From sequence record PQ429079.1: 45,476 nt of DNA; one strand, given 5' to 3'. Made by a program: the position numbers and the translations under genes. Numbering within the stretch: the stretch's first letter is position 1; the number at the start of each line of letters is the position of its first letter. Below are positions 15,597 through 24,144 of this stretch, one piece after another. The notes under the pieces are model-generated. The model did not search any database, was not told the origin of the DNA, and saw nothing but the letters and a program-made list of their open reading frames with translations. The stretch comes from Escherichia phage vB_VIPECOTPH05A.

Positions 15597-17787
15597 TTTA
15601 TTATACCTGGATACCGAGACATTCTCCGAAGCGGACTTAAAGAAAGTCGGGTCGTATGCGTATGCGGAGCACCCAACGACAGAGGTTATAATTTGTACAT
15701 ATGCCGTTGATGATGGCCCTGTAGAAATATGGGATTGCACTTCCGAACCTGTAATGCCGATAAGCCTCTGTGTGGCTCTCCGTAATGTTATGCGTGGGCG
15801 TATGAAAATCGTGGGCCATAACTTTTTAATGTTCGACAGGCTCGTCATGAAACACTGCTGGGGCTTTGATATTCCGGTAAGCAACACCATTGATACGATG
15901 ATTTGGGCGTTTCGTCACGCGCTGCCGGGTTCACTTGATGCCTTGTGCGAAGTGTTGGGCGTATCAGCAGACAATGCGAAAGATAAACGCGGCAAGGCGC
16001 TGATTCAGCGTTTCTCTAAACCGACGCCGAAGAACTACAAAATCCGCCGTTACACTGCCGAAACGCACCCGGACGAGTGGGCGCTGTTTATCAAATACGC
16101 CGTGAGCGACATCACTGCGATGCGTGAGGTCTTCCATAAGCTGCCGCGTTGGGGTAACTCAGAGTTCGAAGACCGTGTACTGGAACTGGACCAGTTAATC
16201 AACGACCGCGGGTTTAAGGTCGACGTTGCGCTGGCAGAAGCCGCGATTGAAGCCGTGGAGAAACACAAAGCGCAGTTACAAGAAGAAACCCAACGTAAAT
16301 ACGGTGGCTCTCTTACCGGTAAAGACTTTCTGCCGATTCTGCGTGAACTGGCGCCTGCGCATCGCATCCACAACGCGCAGAAGTCTACGCTTAACGACCT
16401 GCTGGCGGACGATGATTTACCGGACGACGCCCGCGCGATTATCGAAATGCGCCTTGGAGCCGCGTCGACAGCGTCTACGAAATATAACCCGCTGCTGCTG
16501 GGACGCTCGTCGGACGACCGCCGTCGTGGTTGCTTGCAGTACGGCGGGGCGAAACGCACTCTGCGATGGGCGGGTAAAGGCTTCCAGCCGCAGAACCTGG
16601 CACGCGGGTATTATCACGATGATGAGCTGGATAAAGGCATTTCTGCGTTACTTAAGGGTCGCGCTCATCGCCGTTTTGACGTAGCCAAACTAACGGCATC
16701 GACGGTTCGTAGCTGCATCATACCGGAAGCTGGGCACAAGTTTGTCGTCGCCGATTACTCTAACGTTGAAGGCCGTGGGCTTGCGTGGCTGGCGGGAGAA
16801 GAAACTGCGCTGGATACGTTCCGTGCAGGGCTGGATATTTACTGCGTAACCGCAGGTAAGATGTTCGGCATGGACCCCGACGATATTAAGAAAAACTTCA
16901 AGGAAATCAGACAGATAGGCAAGGCTTGCGAGCTTGGCCTCGGCTATGAGGGCGGAGTCGGAGCGTTCGTTACGTTCGCCAAAAACTTAGGTCTTGACCT
17001 TATTGAGATGGCAAAAACAATGGATGGTACATTCCCTGACCACATCTGGTCAGCCACCGCGAGAGGATATGAATGGGCGCGCATCCAGGAAGCCAAGCGA
17101 CCCCCGCATCCAGGTGAAAAGGACGACAGACCATCATATATTCTGGACAAGAAAGTGTGGCGCACATGCGACGCAATCAAACGTATGTGGCGTGAGTCAC
17201 ACCCTGAAACAGTAGCGTTCTGGCGTGACCTTAAAGACGGAATTTTAGCCGCTGTTCGTAATCCTGGTCGTGAATTTTGGGCGGGGGCGCACTTGCGCAG
17301 GAATGGGGAAAGGGCCATCCGCGTATGGCGTACGGTAGAATTTGATTCGTCGGGCAGGAAGGTTCCCGGTTGGTGGCTTTGTATGGAGTTGCCGTCAGGC
17401 CGTATCCTCTCGTATCCGGGAATCGGCGTTAGCGTGACAAAGGAAACCGACGAAGACGGACGGGTAAATACGAATGTGCGAATCAAGTATCAGGGCGAAA
17501 ACCAGTTAACCCGTCAGTGGACTACCCTGCACACACACGGCGGCAAAGCCTGTGAAAACCTGGTCCAAGCGCTGTGCCGTGATTTACTTGCGTATGCGAT
17601 GATTAACGTTGAGCGCGGTGGGTACCCTATCGTACTTTCGGTACATGATGAACTGGTATGTGAAACTCCAGATACGCCCGATTACACGGTACCTGATCTG
17701 GAAAAATTAATGTGTGCGTTGCCAGAGTGGGCGGAGGGGTTCCCTCTTGTAGCGGAAGGTAGCGAAATGTACAGATATGCTAAATGA
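15589..17787 (+). CDS. DNA polymerase, family A (T7-like) with 3'-5' exonuclease domain
   Basis: Exo motif YLDTETFS; pol motif A DYSNVEGR, motif B KACELGLGYEGG, motif C VHDELV. Confidence 0.85.
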   Translation: MASLLYLDTETFSEADLKKVGSYAYAEHPTTEVIICTYAVDDGPVEIWDCTSEPVMPISLCVALRNVMRGRMKIVGHNFLMFDRLVMKHCWGFDIPVSNTIDTMIWAFRHALPGSLDALCEVLGVSADNAKDKRGKALIQRFSKPTPKNYKIRRYTAETHPDEWALFIKYAVSDITAMREVFHKLPRWGNSEFEDRVLELDQLINDRGFKVDVALAEAAIEAVEKHKAQLQEETQRKYGGSLTGKDFLPILRELAPAHRIHNAQKSTLNDLLADDDLPDDARAIIEMRLGAASTASTKYNPLLLGRSSDDRRRGCLQYGGAKRTLRWAGKGFQPQNLARGYYHDDELDKGISALLKGRAHRRFDVAKLTASTVRSCIIPEAGHKFVVADYSNVEGRGLAWLAGEETALDTFRAGLDIYCVTAGKMFGMDPDDIKKNFKEIRQIGKACELGLGYEGGVGAFVTFAKNLGLDLIEMAKTMDGTFPDHIWSATARGYEWARIQEAKRPPHPGEKDDRPSYILDKKVWRTCDAIKRMWRESHPETVAFWRDLKDGILAAVRNPGREFWAGAHLRRNGERAIRVWRTVEFDSSGRKVPGWWLCMELPSGRILSYPGIGVSVTKETDEDGRVNTNVRIKYQGENQLTRQWTTLHTHGGKACENLVQALCRDLLAYAMINVERGGYPIVLSVHDELVCETPDTPDYTVPDLEKLMCALPEWAEGFPLVAEGSEMYRYAK

Positions 17788-17802: not shown

Positions 17803-18301
17803 ATGAGAGACCTAATTAATTGGCACGACCATTTTCTACTACGAACCCGACACGGGGAAGATACGATGGAAGTATTCCCCGAGACACAGTATAAACGCCG
17901 GAGACGAAGCCGGCAGCCCAAGTAAGAGGGGCTACATCTGTATCGTCGTCAGAGGGGTTAGTTACAGGGCTAATCGCATCGCGTGGGAGATGCATAACAA
18001 TGAACGTTTAGGGACTGATGATGAAGTAGACCATATAAATCACATCCGGGATGATAATCGTGCATGCAACCTTCGTAAAGTATCTCGTACTGATAACAAC
18101 CGAAACGCATCTCGGAGAAAAGATAACAAATCAGGTCTCACAGGTGTGCACTGGAACGCACGGGCGGCTAAATGGAAAGCATGTATATTTGTTGGTGGTA
18201 AACTTATATTCCTGGGCCATCATGACAATATATTTGACGCGGCTTGTGCGCGGAAATCTGCGATTATTCGCTACGTCTTTCATGAGAATCACGGAGGTTA
18301 G
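17803..18301 (+). pseudogene. HNH homing endonuclease, apparently frameshift-disrupted
   Basis: ATG at 17803 opens a 39-aa frame; the HNH body (VDHINHIRDDNRACNLR) is in the +1 frame from about 17816 to 18301 with no start codon of its own. Confidence 0.55.
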
Positions 18302-18669: not shown

Positions 18670-18950
18670 CTAAAGAGGGGCGCATCCAGAAATACGCAAA
18701 AGAGCGATTCGAGGCTATCGGCGGCCTCGTTCGTAAGCTCTCCTACGAAGGACGTTCCGGCGCTCCTGACCTGCTGGTAATTCTCCCCGGCGGCATAGTC
18801 TGGTTCGTCGAGGTTAAGAAAGACGAAAACACGAAGCCGGACCCGCACCAGTTACGAGAGCACGAGCGTATGCGTAAACGTGGTGCTAATGTTTTTGTCG
18901 TTGGTTCGTTCAAACAGGTTGACGACCTAATAGCGAACTATTATAGTTAG
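18666..18950 (+). CDS. VRR-NUC domain nuclease
   Basis: PD-(D/E)XK core GAPDLLVILPGG...WFVEVKKDE. Confidence 0.65.
   Translation: MTKEGRIQKYAKERFEAIGGLVRKLSYEGRSGAPDLLVILPGGIVWFVEVKKDENTKPDPHQLREHERMRKRGANVFVVGSFKQVDDLIANYYS
18919..18947 (+). promoter_or_regulatory. sigma70 consensus-like promoter (TTGACG-N17-TATAGT)
   Basis: embedded in the 3' end of the VRR-NUC gene; same architecture as promoters at 11336 and 14358. Confidence 0.5.
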
Positions 18951-18980
18951 CCATACACCAACAATATAAGGAATTGAGAA

Positions 18981-19175
18981 ATGAAACACGAATATGACCG
19001 CAAGCCAGCACGTGACATCGTACCTGGCGACATGATTTTCAACGTTAAGACCCGCCAGCCTGTTGCCGTTGATACTGTGTTCGTCGAGTCAAACGGTAAA
19101 CTGGTTATCGAAGATGTAACAGGCAACGTTACTGCGTTCGGGCGTAAAGAGCTGGTACTCTACGTTAAGGATTGA
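18981..19175 (+). CDS. hypothetical protein
   Basis: 64-aa ORF with RBS AAGGAATTGAG. Confidence 0.45.
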   Translation: MKHEYDRKPARDIVPGDMIFNVKTRQPVAVDTVFVESNGKLVIEDVTGNVTAFGRKELVLYVKD

Positions 19176-21643
19176 ACATGTCTAAATTTATCCGTCGAGG
19201 GTACCAGAAGCTCATGACTTCGTTCATGCTGCAACACCCGCGCTGTAATATCTGGGCCAGTATGGGTAGCGGCAAGTGCCTGAAACGCGGGACTGAAGTT
19301 ATTATGTTTGACGGTACGACCAAGAAAGTAGAAGACGTCATCGTCGGTGACGTGCTTATGGGGCCGGATTCGACGCCTAGAAATGTACTGTCTCTCGGTA
19401 GAGGCCGGGAGATGATGTACGAGGTTAAACCGCGAAAAGGAGAGTCGTATACGGTCAACGAAAGCCATATATTATCCCTGCGAACTACTACAGGGATCGC
19501 AAAAGGTTCATGGCCAGATAATACCGTTTTCGACATAAGCGTCCGCGACTGGCTTAAGTTGCCGAAATATGTAACCGGACCTAATGGGTATCTTAAGGGT
19601 TGGCGGGTACCTGTCGATTTTACAAGGAAAGAGCAGGACGAGGCTTTATTGCCTCCGTACCTTATGGGGTTATGGCTGGGTGACGGTACTTCGTCGTCGG
19701 GGGCCATAACATCAGGAGAGAACGAAAAGGAAATAAGGGCTTATCTTGAGTCGTACGCAGCACGTAATGGGATGCAAATACGAAAAGAAGGACTTACATG
19801 GAGTATATCTTACGGCAACACAGGTCATAAGAAGCACGGGTTTACGCACGCGCTGAAATCGGCGGGTGTCCTGAACAATAAGCATATACCGCATAGTTAC
19901 AAATGCGGCGACCGGCGACAGCGGTTAGAATTGCTGGCGGGGCTTCTGGATAGTGATGGTTACTGCGATTTGTCTAAAGCGGGTTTTGACTGGATTTCGG
20001 TAAGCGAGCGACTTGCTGATGATTTTTGTTATCTATGCCGTTCTCTTGGTTTTGCTGCTTACAAGAAGAAAACTCGTAAGCGTTGCGCAAACACTGATGT
20101 TTGGGGTGACTACTTCCGTGTGTCGGTATCTGGCGATTTTTCTGAGGTACCTTTCGTGCGAGGACGCCACCAGAATTTACCGAAGCGTAATATTAATAAG
20201 AACGTGCTTAACGTTGGGATAGAATCCATAACCCCGGTCGGCGTAGATGATTATTTTGGCTTCACTATCGACGGTGACAGTAGGTTTTTATTGGGGGACT
20301 TCACTGTCACGCACAATACAAGCTCAACGTTGTGGGTTCTCAACCGCCTGTTCCGTAATGGGCAACTTAATGACGACGACCGCGTGTTAATCCTCGCCCC
20401 GTTGCGTGTTGCGTCTGGCACGTGGCCTGCGGAACAGGCACGTTGGGGTTTCCCGTGCCTGCGTGTCGTAGATGCAACTGGTTCAGAGAAGCGCCGCATC
20501 GCGGCGCTGGAGTCGGACGCTAACGTGGTGTGCACTAACTACGAAGTTATCGAATGGCTTATTGACTACTACGGCAAAGACGACTGGCCTTTTACAGTTA
20601 TTGTCGCCGATGAAAGCACGAAGCTGAAATCGTTTCGCAGCCGTTCAGGTGGTAGCAAGCGTGCAAAGGCGCTCAGCAAAGTGGCGTTTGGTAAGGTTAA
20701 GCGTTTTATCAACCTGACCGGTACGCCGTCACCAAACGGCCTCAAAGACTTGTGGGGGCAGAACTGGTTTATAGACGCAGGCGAGCGACTTGGTTCTTCG
20801 TACACGGCATTCACTGACCGCTGGTTTAACTCGGTGCAGAAAGGGAAGTCCGCGATGGCGCGCGAGTATCACGCACGACCGGGTGCAGATAATGAAATTC
20901 ATCAGAAGATGAAGGATATCAGTCTCACTATCGATGCCGCAGAGTGGTTCGGTTGCGAAGCGCCGATTATCGTTCCTGTTGAAATAGACCTGCCGAAGAA
21001 AGCGCGTCAGGCGTACATCGATATGGAGGAGAAGTTATTTGCGGAACTCGAGAGCGGAGAAGTCGAAGCGGCTAATGCCGCGGCGAAGACGTCGAAGTGT
21101 TTGCAGATTGCATCCGGTGCCGTATATGTGTCAGGGCCAGATGGCGAAGCAACAAAAGACTGGGAGAAAGTGCACGACACGAAACTGGATGCGCTCGAGT
21201 CGATTGTTGAGGAGTTACAGGGTGCGCCGTTACTGGTAGCCTATCAGTTTAAGCACGAACTGGAGCGTATCCTTAAGCGATTCCCGCAAGCGCAGGCGTT
21301 TGCCAAAGGCGCTAAGGGTAATAAGCAGATGGAAGCGTGGAACCGTGGGGGAATCGAAATCTTATGCGTTCACCCCGCGTCAGCGGGCCATGGTTTGAAT
21401 TTACAGGACGGTGGACATCATCTGGTATTCATATCGCAAGGCTGGAACCTTGAGCACTATTTGCAGGTTGTCGAGCGCATAGGCCCCGTACGCCAGAAAC
21501 AGGCGGGGCATGAGCGCCCGGTGTTCCTTTATCACATCGTTGCTAAAGACACGCTGGATGAGGTTGTTGCCGCGCGTACAGACGAGAAGAAATCGGTCCA
21601 GGAAGAGTTGCTTAATTACATGAAGAGACGAGGTAAGAAATGA
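19172..21643 (+). CDS. SNF2-family helicase, intein-containing
   Basis: extein has Walker A GSGK|T (split by intein), DEST box VADESTKL, LTGTPSPNGLKDLW, HPASAGHGLNLQ, Q..G...R. Confidence 0.75.
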   Translation: MNMSKFIRRGYQKLMTSFMLQHPRCNIWASMGSGKCLKRGTEVIMFDGTTKKVEDVIVGDVLMGPDSTPRNVLSLGRGREMMYEVKPRKGESYTVNESHILSLRTTTGIAKGSWPDNTVFDISVRDWLKLPKYVTGPNGYLKGWRVPVDFTRKEQDEALLPPYLMGLWLGDGTSSSGAITSGENEKEIRAYLESYAARNGMQIRKEGLTWSISYGNTGHKKHGFTHALKSAGVLNNKHIPHSYKCGDRRQRLELLAGLLDSDGYCDLSKAGFDWISVSERLADDFCYLCRSLGFAAYKKKTRKRCANTDVWGDYFRVSVSGDFSEVPFVRGRHQNLPKRNINKNVLNVGIESITPVGVDDYFGFTIDGDSRFLLGDFTVTHNTSSTLWVLNRLFRNGQLNDDDRVLILAPLRVASGTWPAEQARWGFPCLRVVDATGSEKRRIAALESDANVVCTNYEVIEWLIDYYGKDDWPFTVIVADESTKLKSFRSRSGGSKRAKALSKVAFGKVKRFINLTGTPSPNGLKDLWGQNWFIDAGERLGSSYTAFTDRWFNSVQKGKSAMAREYHARPGADNEIHQKMKDISLTIDAAEWFGCEAPIIVPVEIDLPKKARQAYIDMEEKLFAELESGEVEAANAAAKTSKCLQIASGAVYVSGPDGEATKDWEKVHDTKLDALESIVEELQGAPLLVAYQFKHELERILKRFPQAQAFAKGAKGNKQMEAWNRGGIEILCVHPASAGHGLNLQDGGHHLVFISQGWNLEHYLQVVERIGPVRQKQAGHERPVFLYHIVAKDTLDEVVAARTDEKKSVQEELLNYMKRRGKK
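19277..20317 (+). mobile_element. intein with LAGLIDADG homing endonuclease domain (347 aa)
   Basis: begins Cys (CLKRGTEVIMFDG) right after GSGK, ends ...THN followed by Thr; two LAGLIDADG-like blocks LMGLWLGDGT and LLAGLLDSDGY. Confidence 0.75.
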
Positions 21644-21777: not shown

Positions 21778-21809
21778 AGAAAAGGCCCCTTTCGGGGCCT
21801 TGTTTATTT
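21776..21809. terminator. bidirectional rho-independent terminator
   Basis: stem AGGCCCC/GGGGCCT flanked by A-run and T-run, at convergence of the replication and structural modules. Confidence 0.7.
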
Positions 21810-24144
21810 AACTGTTTGTCAGGGTAGCCACTAATGTCTCAAGCGCTATAATCCTTTTCTCTAACTGAGCTGCTTTACGTCGCTGTAACGCAGCCTCTAA
21901 TATCAATACCTCATCATAACGAATACCATACCGCTCCCCTGCCGCCGTAGCTTTTGTTAATACTTCCCCAGATTCCTCATCAATAATTTCCGGAGACGCT
22001 TCCCACTTATCGTAGCACAGGAAACCGTACTTAGTCGCGTCCAACCCGTGCCGGGTAAACGCCTCAATTGCTCGTTGGGCTACTACTCCAAAGTGCCACC
22101 TAGCTGCATCCTCCCCCTTCTCTGCAACCCTATCCAGGTACTTATATTGAACTAAATTAACTTCAGCCCAAGCGTCTAACATAGCGTCAGTTAATTCCAG
22201 GGGTAGTGTCTTGGCTCTCTCGTCAGACGTAACCGTAAACGCTGTTTGAGTGAATCCGCCGGACAAAGCGAGACTTGCCGACCCGATAGCGACGGTGTTT
22301 GCACTGGATGGTGTAATAGCCGTCGGTGCTATTTGAATATACGCCAATGTGTCAGAGGCTAAGCGTAAATTACCATTAACCAGAGAAATAGTTCGAGAAG
22401 TACCATTAGATGTGAGTAATTTTATCTGAGAGGTCGTACCTCCACCAATAGCCAAAGATGTAGCCCCATCGGAAATTAGTCTGAATTTATCAGCTGTCAC
22501 AAAACGCAATGCAGAAGTATCTATATACTTAGTGAACCACTCAAACCTACCGGACATGGACCCTATGTATTGTCCTATAGCGGGGGCGTGTACCACGTTA
22601 CTGGTGGTAGTACCATCAATGCTAGAGACCCCGGTTATAGTAGATAGTGAACTAAGAAGACTGTTCTTGGGTCCAGGGTGCTTTACTTCCACAAAGTTAC
22701 GGGTAGTCCCTGTCTCTAGTGTAACAACCCCGGAAGCACTATACATAGGGAAAACCGATGCGTAGTTATTACTAGCTCCGTCTAAAAACCTAATAGAAGT
22801 CGCGGTTTGCGTTTGCCCTAAACTATTAGTTCCGCTGCACCCAACCATTAGAATATTATCAGCGGCATTATAGTTGCCTTGTAATGTAACGCCGTGTGCT
22901 TGCGTGGCCTCGGAGGAGGAGTAATCAGCTACAACATTTGACACCAGATTACCTGAACCCTTGCCGGTGACCACAGCGGCGTACTTAGCGTTATTAGCAA
23001 CAACATTACTGATAATATTACTGCTAGGGGCATTGGTCGTCTCGGTGCCATTATAAACAACGTGCTGACAGCTTTGCCCAATGACGCCACTAACAACATT
23101 ACATTTAGCATCTGTTTTCAACTCAACCGCCCCGAATTGGGGGTAGTTTCGGGCGATAACATCGTTGATTATAGTATTACTTGCGGACTCAAACAGCACG
23201 CACCCCGCTGTTTTATTTGTAGCATACCCGGAGTAGTCGCCCCGTATGCCGCTTACAATGTATCCAGACGGACCCCCATCACTAGGGTATGCTATTAAAC
23301 TAAATCCAGTTCCCTTTGCATTTTTAAAATCAATACCTTTAATAGTAACGTCCTGCCCACCGGCGAAGGAAACCTGCTGACCCTGTGTGAAGTCCGTTGC
23401 CTTATTTCCTACAATACTCAGGGTGCTAAGTAGCCCTCCTGCAGGTTTATCAAAGATTAAGTGGTTTCCAGAATCGTTTGATTGTTTTAAAACCCCACCC
23501 CCTGTTCCGAATAGAGAGCATGTCGGGTGGGAGAGTAGCGACGTACTATACTCCCCTTGCGGTACAAGCACCCCGTTACTAGCTGTAAGCGCTCGGTTAA
23601 GGGCGTTTGTGTAATCAGGGTCAGTACCTAAATAGAAGTCCAGAACGGAAACTACTTCTCTATTTTTATCGTGTTGCGTCCTGCCGACAGCGTCGGTAAA
23701 TGGTTGTCGGACGCCGACCATGGCATCACCTAATGTCGCATTGTCTGTGCTGGATAAATCATTGCGCAAATCCGGGTCAGTACGCGGCTCCCAGTTAGCG
23801 TTACCTACGGGATTAAAACTCGCGGGAACTGTAACTGGTAACGTCCCCGCGTACGAGTACCACGTTTTACTTACAGGGTCGTACACCACTTTGTCGCGGT
23901 CATTAACTGTTAACGTACCGCCAGAGGAGAAATCCCACGATACAGGAGAAAAACCAGCATCACGCAACACGGCGGGTAACGTCTTCTGTGTCTGCCCTGT
24001 AACCTGGTTTGTTGCGTAATCAATATCGGCTCCGCCAGCGACACCGCCGGATTTGCCAGTGATAACCTCGGCTTCGAAAATCTGGTGTTTCTTGGCGGTT
24101 TGTAAATCCGCCAGGCTTAAAACGTCACCGCATCCGCTTGACAT
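21808..24144 (-). CDS. tailspike/tail fiber with beta-helix (depolymerase-like) domain and C-terminal intramolecular chaperone
   Basis: 778 aa; repetitive beta-helix-like middle; C-terminal region around TSDERAKT resembles the auto-cleaving chaperone (S74) domain. Confidence 0.7.
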   Translation of the reverse strand: MSSGCGDVLSLADLQTAKKHQIFEAEVITGKSGGVAGGADIDYATNQVTGQTQKTLPAVLRDAGFSPVSWDFSSGGTLTVNDRDKVVYDPVSKTWYSYAGTLPVTVPASFNPVGNANWEPRTDPDLRNDLSSTDNATLGDAMVGVRQPFTDAVGRTQHDKNREVVSVLDFYLGTDPDYTNALNRALTASNGVLVPQGEYSTSLLSHPTCSLFGTGGGVLKQSNDSGNHLIFDKPAGGLLSTLSIVGNKATDFTQGQQVSFAGGQDVTIKGIDFKNAKGTGFSLIAYPSDGGPSGYIVSGIRGDYSGYATNKTAGCVLFESASNTIINDVIARNYPQFGAVELKTDAKCNVVSGVIGQSCQHVVYNGTETTNAPSSNIISNVVANNAKYAAVVTGKGSGNLVSNVVADYSSSEATQAHGVTLQGNYNAADNILMVGCSGTNSLGQTQTATSIRFLDGASNNYASVFPMYSASGVVTLETGTTRNFVEVKHPGPKNSLLSSLSTITGVSSIDGTTTSNVVHAPAIGQYIGSMSGRFEWFTKYIDTSALRFVTADKFRLISDGATSLAIGGGTTSQIKLLTSNGTSRTISLVNGNLRLASDTLAYIQIAPTAITPSSANTVAIGSASLALSGGFTQTAFTVTSDERAKTLPLELTDAMLDAWAEVNLVQYKYLDRVAEKGEDAARWHFGVVAQRAIEAFTRHGLDATKYGFLCYDKWEASPEIIDEESGEVLTKATAAGERYGIRYDEVLILEAALQRRKAAQLEKRIIALETLVATLTNS

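Follow-up and report, generated by a model that had tools for sequence, protein, structure and literature searches.

The helicase gene and its insert

The stretch of DNA analysed here (the window) comprises 45,476 nt of Escherichia phage vB_VIPECOTPH05A (PQ429079.1) and contains, on the plus strand, a helicase gene that runs from an ATG at 19178 to a stop codon at 21643 and is interrupted within its Walker A motif. The ORF lister places the start of this gene at a TTG codon at 19172, but the ATG at 19178 is the likely initiation codon, because an AAGGA Shine-Dalgarno sequence lies 6 nt before it and intein-less homologues begin with the same MSKF. With this start, the N-extein of the SNF2-type helicase consists of 33 codons (19178-19276, plus strand), which encode the RGYQ Q-motif and, at 19265-19276, the GSGK that makes up the first half of Walker A. 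The C-extein (20318-21643, plus strand; 441 codons and the stop, as delimited by translation and Pfam) begins with TSST and harbors the rest of the SNF2-related domain as well as Helicase_C. Its first residue, Thr+1 (ACA, 20318-20320), is the Ser/Thr of Walker A and is predicted to double as the nucleophile of the splice junction.

A preliminary description, made from the letters and the translated ORFs, had named a SNF2 helicase as the host protein, and the Pfam scores agree. SNF2-rel_dom (cut-off 24.9) reaches 37 bits on the precursor and 48.1 bits on the protein spliced in silico, in which the match is continuous across the P-loop and the predicted junction reads …SMGSGK-TSSTLWVLNR. On the spliced sequence, Helicase_C scores 19.2 bits, under its cut-off of 23.5, and NCBIfam yields weak matches to Snf2-type helicases. 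Classification as a SNF2-family (SF2) helicase/ATPase, with a SNF2-related ATPase domain carrying Walker A and a Helicase_C lobe, is supported by these profile matches.

The insert (19277-20317, plus strand) translates into 347 codons without a stop, from CLKRGTEV at its start to FTVTHN at its end, and its placement, GSGK / Cys1…His346-Asn347 / Thr, is in frame, exactly as the preliminary description had it. With regard to the signature of a self-splicing intein with a homing endonuclease, which was also claimed there, the insert alone matches Hom_end_hint (E 2.4e-22) and LAGLIDADG_3 (E 8.7e-8) in Pfam, far beyond chance. The PI-SceI-like intein class is defined by Hom_end_hint (PF05203) and Hom_end (PF05204) at the gathering threshold; the former scores 80.5 bits (cut-off 32.1), and the latter falls just under its cut-off (21.0 versus 21.1). 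None of the intein-specific NCBIfam models scored on the insert, the only match being a weak partial one to an intein-containing Tes model, and Pfam scans of 20 ORFs, mostly among the largest in the window, detected no further Hint domain.

The conserved residues were called from an alignment of the intein with 46 homologues (47 sequences), in which the insert satisfies 24 of the 24 invariant columns, including C1, H64, D136, D227, H346, and N347. The Cys1 codon (TGC, 19277-19279), which would supply the block A nucleophile, is invariant. Block B (N61-E-S-H64, 19457-19468) is an NxxH variant of TxxH, in which Asn replaces the consensus Thr; the His is invariant, conservation of the Asn across the family is at least 90%, and the block B of PI-SceI, we assume, carries the same variant. 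Both LAGLIDADG-like blocks of the preliminary description are present. The first, LMGLWLGDGT (intein residues 129-138; 19661-19690), contains invariant G131, W133, L134, G135, D136, and G137, aligns to LLGLWIGDG of PI-SceI, and provides a putative catalytic Asp136. The second, LLAGLLDSDGY (residues 219-229; 19931-19963), contains invariant A221, G222, D225, D227, and G228, aligns to FLAGLIDSDGY of PI-SceI, and provides a putative catalytic Asp227. Between them lies an NNKHIP segment (19874-19891), in which N201, K202, H203, I204, and P205 each reach at least 90% conservation and Lys202 is aligned to the lysine of the PI-SceI KNIP segment. Blocks F and G (DDYFGFTIDGDSRFLLGDFTVTHN, 20246-20317) end in His346-Asn347, and their Y326, G328, F329, D341, F342, V344, H346, and N347 are conserved or invariant. 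All of these features are on the plus strand.

The AlphaFold model of the intein (pLDDT 92.5) has PI-SceI as its best fold match (Foldseek E 3e-23; query-based TM 0.80), followed by TliVMA, PI-PfuI, Prp8 inteins, and I-DmoI, while PI-SceI is also the best solved relative in a search of PDB sequences (E 3.3e-16). The Hint part of the model additionally matches the gp41-1 and DnaB inteins and the Hedgehog Hint domain. The pseudo-dimeric alpha-beta-beta-alpha-beta-beta-alpha endonuclease fold matches the corresponding domains of PI-SceI and PI-PfuI, as well as the free-standing I-DmoI (E approximately 1e-5). On this model, a two-motif monomeric LAGLIDADG homing endonuclease is predicted, with one Asp ending each motif, which would split the Hint splicing domain.

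The continuous loop that the preliminary description had expected of intein-less homologues is found, as GxGK[ST], in K1ind2 (GSGKSGSTLW), in vB_VIPECOMC04 (GAGKTGSVLW), and in 44 metagenomic alleles, which were collected with a loose P-loop pattern since Walker A varies (GAGK, GGGK). These alleles are shorter by exactly 1041 nt and have an intact Walker A. The insert shows in-frame insertion with exact boundaries, Cys1, block B, block G with Thr+1, and a Hint fold, as expected of a canonical class 1 intein; from sequence and modelled structure, it is very probably such an intein with a PI-SceI-type LAGLIDADG homing endonuclease. That it might instead be a stable accessory domain, a domesticated Hint/LAGLIDADG module kept in the mature helicase, deserves practically no credence. 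It divides Walker A between Lys and Thr, and most close homologues lack it with boundaries that are exact (in phages with helicases of about 87-91% nucleotide identity, it is either present or absent in this precise form); it retains every splicing nucleophile and the terminal HN, which are invariant.

Relatives of the intein in phages and in other P-loop proteins

The same intein has already been annotated and published, at the same site, in closely related phages. In the Escherichia phages Shashou (MK931440) and Sciku (MK931439), the gene, the insertion site, and the length of 347 residues are the same, and both records annotate the insert as a mat_peptide 'intein'. Sequence comparison of the intein with that of Shashou revealed 100% identity in protein and 99.4% in DNA, whereas the exteins of the host helicase are only 91% identical in nucleotides (78% over the N-terminal 90 nt). 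In the Shashou record, the CDS begins at MGSGK and leaves a 5-residue N-extein, unlike the 33 residues found here, and this start is probably an annotation error. The presence of an intein in the helicase was also reported in the Shashou genome paper of 2019 (PMC6776780).

In Salmonella Jerseyviruses, which differ from this phage in genus and host, helicase inteins of the same site and length and 92-96% nucleotide identity occur in SETP3, SETP7, vB_SenS-Ent1/2/3, Shelanagig, and about 170 more. The annotation 'putative intein containing helicase' is used in SETP3, the Ent phages, Shelanagig, and others, and the helicase inteins of SETP3, SETP5, and SETP12 are listed in InBase. In total, 177 of the 186 intein-carrying records belong to Salmonella phages and three to Escherichia phages. 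These close relatives were taken from DNA collections; a large protein database search with the intein gave family-level context only (insertion sites and invariant residues), since the phage proteins of 92-100% identity are absent from the matches listed.

PI-SceI, the VMA1 intein of Saccharomyces cerevisiae (PDB 1VDE, 1LWS, 1DFA), shares with the phage intein a Hom_end_hint type splicing domain, two LAGLIDADG motifs with Asp at the same positions, the K-x-I-P lysine, and a C-terminal …LL…VVHN. However, the two are only about 22% identical, the phage intein is 107 residues shorter, its +1 residue is Thr instead of Cys, and its host is a helicase P-loop instead of V-ATPase subunit A. In the sequence alignment, residues 54-126 of the phage intein (73 aa) face residues 54-208 of PI-SceI (155 aa), a stretch which we take to contain the DNA-recognition region of the latter; because of this shorter counterpart, target recognition may differ from that of PI-SceI.

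Insertion between the Lys and Thr of the P-loop has been termed the 'classic' P-loop insertion (PMC5050341), and the arrangement GSGK / intein / T, with Thr as +1, conforms to it. It was reported that the mycobacteriophage TerL1-a, DnaB-b, MCM-a, RFC-a, RadA, and Anaeramoeba cluster 1 inteins are likewise placed between the invariant Walker A Lys and a nucleophilic Thr/Ser (PMC5050341, PMC4760082, PMC10710043), albeit in other host proteins. Among the best 120 metagenomic relatives of the phage intein, which are at most 51% identical to it, nearly all occupy either GK/[ST] or the position one step before it, G/[ST]GK[ST], and their hosts are mutually unrelated P-loop NTPases (ResIII, DnaB, PhoH, AAA, thymidine and dTMP kinases, UvrD, and ABC).

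Selection on the intein and a co-conversion tract

Across seven intein-carrying phages, nucleotide identity is 95-99.4% in the intein but only 87-91% in the exteins. Synonymous divergence follows the same pattern, with a dS of 0.13 in the intein versus 0.63 in the extein, i.e., about five times lower. Both domains are under purifying selection, with a dN/dS ratio of 0.05 overall and of 0.07 for the endonuclease domain. In a distant clade (L050), the intein retains 72% amino acid identity and the extein 71%.

Three minus-strand ORFs in the intein region (19165-19707, 19160-19468, and 19712-19894) were considered as genes and are regarded as chance antisense ORFs, because the plus-strand frame is under this strong purifying selection and no matching record lists a minus-strand gene there.

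The closest whole genome, that of vB_VIPECOMC04, has no intein. Mismatches relative to Shashou, L039, and vB_VIPECOMC04 were mapped along the gene and combined with a best-neighbour scan. Identity to vB_VIPECOMC04 is complete over extein nt 361-600 and 661-750 and about 98% over nt 601-690, whereas nt 61-240 are 67-87% identical to vB_VIPECOMC04 versus 92-100% to Shashou, the match to Shashou being complete over nt 91-209. Hence, flanking extein of approximately 10-55 nt upstream and 110-260 nt downstream matches intein-carrying donors, and the rest of the gene matches the intein-less phage. The limits of the block lie between extein nt 43 and 91 upstream and between nt 210 and 358 downstream, so that its widest extent, intein and co-converted flanks included, is 19220-20576 (plus strand); it was apparently imported by homing. 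These DNA comparisons show that a co-conversion tract with sharp limits, centred on the insertion site, is present in this genome.

The genome documents recent movement of the intein across phage genera: the sharply delimited tract lies in a gene that otherwise matches that of an intein-less phage without a difference for several hundred nucleotides, and the intein is frequent among Salmonella Jerseyviruses but rarely seen in Escherichia Kagunaviruses.

Presumed splicing and homing, and the target site

Both splicing and DNA cleavage by the intein presumably occur. The helicase gene would be translated as an 821-residue precursor with an interrupted and presumably inactive ATP-binding loop. 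Cys1 would then undergo an N-S acyl shift, the N-extein would be transferred onto Thr+1, and cyclisation of Asn347 would free the intein, after which an O-N shift would yield a helicase of 474 residues whose GSGKT loop is intact. Once released, the intein of 347 residues would act as a site-specific DNA endonuclease, which in a mixed infection would cut intein-less helicase alleles at the P-loop codons, and repair off the intein-carrying genome would copy the intein together with short flanks (homing). A search of the open-access literature found no experimental study of splicing or cleavage by the SETP3/Jerseyvirus helicase intein.

The empty site reconstituted from the N-extein and C-extein DNA reads CCCGCGCTGTAATATCTGGGCCAGTATGGGTAGCGGCAAG up to the junction and ACAAGCTCAACGTTGTGGGTTCTCAACCGC beyond it. 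No intein-less allele matching this target was found among 50,697 phage records and the 44 metagenomic alleles, and the nearest ones are 86% identical (80 nt) or have 8 mismatches in 42 positions. Present-day opportunities for homing may therefore be rare, and the conservation of the intein could partly reflect selection for splicing, not cleavage.

Such distances are expected late in a homing cycle and would suit an intein that splices but has an inactive endonuclease, inherited vertically or spread by ordinary recombination and kept since imprecise loss destroys an essential P-loop. The near-equal divergence of intein and extein in the distant clade would also fit the long co-descent that this explanation implies. 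Nevertheless, we consider it rather unlikely: the endonuclease domain evolves at the low dN/dS given above and retains both catalytic Asp residues and the conserved Lys, the dS of the intein is far below that of its host gene, and general recombination is not expected to produce a sharply bounded tract centred on the intein.

It is also conceivable that the intein serves as a conditional switch, whose splicing responds to redox, metal ions, or DNA and thereby times the activation of the helicase during infection. Such a role has been proposed for the RadA and DnaB P-loop inteins. Conditionally splicing P-loop inteins described in earlier work occupy the same insertion site (PMC4760082; PMC5790916, PMC6195587), and the catalytic residue here is Cys1. 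This role is nevertheless very unlikely, as over half of the records of related phages (about 250 of 440) lack the intein, which has the evolutionary signature of a mobile parasite.

Among intein-less alleles, no part of the helicase varies more than the homing site. At least five intein-less haplotypes are observed, i.e., ASMGAGK-TGSVLW, CGMGGGK-TSSTMW, ASMGAGK-SSATMW, ASMGSGK-SGSTLW, and ASMGSGK-SVATLW. It is tentatively proposed, at somewhat less than even chances, that a contest between homing endonuclease and target is under way in the Walker A segment of Guernseyvirinae helicases, in which these haplotypes would be cleavage-resistant escape variants. Alternatively, co-conversion from different donors may have occurred repeatedly and left them as passive scars. 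If true, the interpretation as escape variants would explain why the motif that is usually the most conserved of a helicase is the most variable here, and why an empty site matching the flanks of intein-carrying genes is absent from sequenced phages.

The appropriate annotation of the gene is that of a helicase precursor containing an intein, with an N-extein of 33 residues, rather than an 823-residue helicase or two genes. Biologically, it is another copy of a well-documented selfish element and an ordinary find, of modest value as a clean natural example, in an Escherichia Kagunavirus, of an intein that is mostly carried by Salmonella Jerseyviruses. The family provides a tractable pair of phage systems, one in E. 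coli and one in Salmonella, in which intein homing and the resistance of target sites could be measured.

The helicase gene and its insertion point

A single long open reading frame lies on the plus strand at 19172-21643 (ORF listing), and the SNF2-type helicase gene within it (19178-21643) likely starts at ATG 19178, which follows an AAGGA Shine-Dalgarno sequence by 6 nt and encodes MSKF…, also the first residues of intein-less homologues at the same start position. Helicase residues 1-33 contain the Q-motif RGYQ and end in GSGK, after which come 347 codons (19277-20317), the first for Cys and the last two for His-Asn; Thr-Ser-Ser-Thr-Leu-Trp resumes directly 3′ of them. The preliminary description had proposed a LAGLIDADG intein in the Walker A motif, reading GSGK, Cys…His-Asn and Thr, and translation confirmed these boundaries exactly to the base. 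Removal of the insert in silico leaves a 474-residue protein, in which the Pfam match to the SNF2-related domain runs unbroken across the P-loop and scores 48.1 bits, versus 37 bits in the precursor, while Helicase_C is weakly matched (19 bits). The intein-less helicase of phage K1ind2 reads …ASMGSGKSGSTLWVLNRL… with no insert.

The insert separates the invariant Walker A Lys from the Ser/Thr, the "classic" position of P-loop inteins according to Kelley et al. (PMC5050341); the clustering of inteins in P-loops has been treated by Novikova et al. (PMC4760082). Thr+1 therefore acts as the nucleophile in splicing and is also essential to the ATPase. This dual role of the +1 residue is the usual reason why P-loop inteins resist imprecise loss. 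In the GenBank record of Escherichia phage Shashou, the helicase CDS (L001, MK931440, 2589-4970) begins at MGSGK, which gives a 5-residue N-extein and leaves out the Q-motif; the intein-less homologues and the AAGGA sequence argue for a true start 28 codons upstream, equivalent to ATG 19178.

Several neighbouring genes were also inspected. A DNA methyltransferase gene lies directly 5′ of the helicase in K1ind2 and in phage vB_VIPECOMC04 (loci L002 555-1484 and L071 3000-3812); in the window (18950-19178), as in Shashou, this interval holds only a 64-codon ORF (18981-19175) abutting the helicase start. Further upstream, an HNH-type endonuclease frame (17811-18301, plus strand; Pfam HNH_3 match at 17990-18298) is located between the DNA polymerase gene and the next endonuclease gene (VRR-NUC in the Shashou annotation). 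It is open upstream, where it resembles a conserved N-terminus (…YYEPDTGKIRW…), but with no ATG, GTG or TTG before Met 17990. This frame has no nucleotide match to the HNH gene that Shashou carries at this position, so the slot is used by different free-standing homing endonucleases. On the minus strand, the tailspike gene (21808-24144) encodes a protein with a Peptidase_S74 domain (endosialidase chaperone) at its C-terminus and a weakly matching Tail_spike_N; its Shashou counterpart is annotated as a tailspike endosialidase.

Identity of the intein and its homing endonuclease

The insert is an intein with a homing endonuclease, as the preliminary description had concluded; this reading is backed by profile matches, similarity to the yeast VMA1 intein PI-SceI, conserved residues and the predicted fold. 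The proposed comparison with intein profiles gave Pfam matches to Hom_end_hint (E 2.4e-22; 80.5 bits against a cut-off of 32.1) and LAGLIDADG_3 (E 8.7e-8), with Hom_end scoring just at threshold, and both dodecapeptide-like blocks quoted earlier are present, at intein residues 129-138 and 219-229. When the intein was aligned with 46 diverse homologues, the invariant columns included C1, H64 (block B), H346/N347, G131/W133/L134/G135/D136/G137 and A221/G222/D225/D227/G228, while N61 and N201-K202-H203-I204-P205 were kept in at least 90%; the window intein retains all of them. A confident AlphaFold2 model built from this alignment (mean pLDDT 92.5, pTM 0.92) was searched against the PDB with Foldseek, and ranks 1-11 were all PI-SceI structures (E 3e-23 to 4e-20, query TM 0.75-0.80); the next ranks went to the inteins TliVMA and PI-PfuI, to Prp8 inteins, to I-DmoI (a free-standing LAGLIDADG enzyme), to mini-inteins and to the Hedgehog Hint domain.

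PI-SceI is also the best solved relative by sequence (E 3.3e-16, PDB sequence search). The N-terminal 53 residues of the two align without gaps, and the two LAGLIDADG motifs, the K-x-I-P segment and the C-terminal …LL…V(V/T)HN are aligned in both. Residues 54-126 of the phage intein face PI-SceI residues 54-208, which we take to contain the DNA-recognition region, and the phage protein is some 80 residues shorter in that stretch.

Distribution and mobility

The element is already known. A megablast search of the phage collection matched the helicase gene in 440 Guernseyvirinae records, and in 168 of them the match, with the intein, extends over 80% or more of the query; the intein DNA alone is present in 186 phage records, including 177 Salmonella phages and 3 Escherichia phages. 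The best match, Shashou (intein DNA 99.4% and protein 100% identical), is annotated as "intein-containing helicase" with a mat_peptide "intein", and its genome announcement reports an intein in the helicase (PMC6776780). The same annotation occurs in SETP3, vB_SenS-Ent1/Ent2, Shelanagig, 5sent1 and others; annotation of the Salmonella-phage copies goes back a long time. PMC11162368 (2024) contrasts with the presence of the helicase intein in the window and in the 2019 records of Shashou and Sciku.

More distant copies were detected as well. Those of St162 and FSL SP-031 have about 70% DNA identity, and a distant clade (L050; extein protein 71% identical) carries at this site an intein of 345 residues that is 72% identical. 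Identity to the 120 best metagenomic relatives is 37-51%, and nearly all of these are inserted at GK/[ST] or one step before it, G/[ST]GK[ST] (slash, insertion point), in host proteins with unrelated Pfam domains (ResIII, DnaB_C, PhoH, AAA, thymidine kinase, thymidylate kinase, AAA_24, UvrD, ABC and SNF2); earlier work has described how related inteins spread among the P-loops of proteins that are not homologous (PMC10710043, PMC4760082). In Klebsiella phage YX3973 (NC_054652), positions 15800-15922, within the terminase large-subunit gene, weakly match intein nt 13-135 (71.5%) and may mark a relative of this intein in another P-loop protein.

Among metagenomic viral contigs, 51 distinct 1425-nt extein alleles were found, of which 7 have the intein, at exactly this site, and 44 lack it. 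By whole genome the window is closest to vB_VIPECOMC04 (93% identity, with 85% of the first 25 kb covered), whose helicase gene has 1425 nt and no intein. Across seven intein-carrying sequences, intein DNA is 95-99.4% identical versus 87-91% for the exteins, and mean synonymous divergence is 0.13 versus 0.63. By extein comparison (intein removed), the window gene is a mosaic: nt 361-600 and 661-750 are 100% identical to vB_VIPECOMC04 versus 83-100% to Shashou, and nt 601-690 about 98% versus about 83%, while nt 61-240, spanning the insertion site (99/100), are 67-87% identical to vB_VIPECOMC04 versus 92-100% to Shashou, with 0 mismatches at nt 91-209. A Salmonella-phage allele (L039) differs from the window by a single mismatch in nt 43-128, and the first 90 nt are nearest to an intein-less Kagunavirus allele (L007; 94% versus 82% for the best intein-carrying allele). 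This mosaic is the pattern expected if double-strand-break repair copied the intein and short flanks into a vB_VIPECOMC04-like gene, and the limits of the co-conversion tract fall within nt 43-91 upstream and nt 210-358 downstream.

Every part of the intein is under purifying selection (dN/dS 0.02 for the N-terminal Hint part, 0.07 for the endonuclease and 0.03 for the C-terminal Hint part), which argues that both activities are still maintained. As we infer from the family, the interrupted ATPase precursor, presumably inactive, would be translated first, autocatalytic splicing would then restore GSGKT, and the released endonuclease would perform homing; the conserved residues, fold, selection pattern and co-conversion tract support this mechanism.

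Target-site diversity among phages lacking the intein

Across the 44 alleles without the intein, no part of the gene varies more than the Walker A segment, which occurs as five haplotypes (window 19178-19276 and 20318-20440 compared with loci L002-L058 and L071-L073). Nucleotide diversity in 30-nt windows peaks at nt 79-129, and the top eight windows all overlap the insertion site (π 0.31-0.34 versus a gene mean of 0.136); the 20-codon block at nt 61-120 has the highest pN of the gene (0.18, versus 0.003-0.03 centrally) and the highest pN/pS (0.27). No empty site matching the intein-carrying flanks was found among the intein-less alleles, the closest having 8/42 mismatches, and the best contiguous 80-nt match to the reconstituted site in all 50,697 phage records is 86%. 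EM1 and LPSE1, the two inspected among the closest alleles, differ at 4/6 nt just 3′ of the insertion point (AAG/TCCGGG or AAG/TCGGGG versus AAG/ACAAGC).

This diversity may reflect target-site escape from the homing endonuclease, with selection of cleavage-resistant targets; just as well, it could be a side effect of repeated co-conversion or the outcome of selection for splicing that acts on residues +1/+2. The diversity statistics carry no correction for phylogeny or recombination, and target-site diversity is therefore a lead rather than a result. What is new here is modest: a clearly delimited co-conversion tract in the window genome and a diversity hot spot at the homing site.
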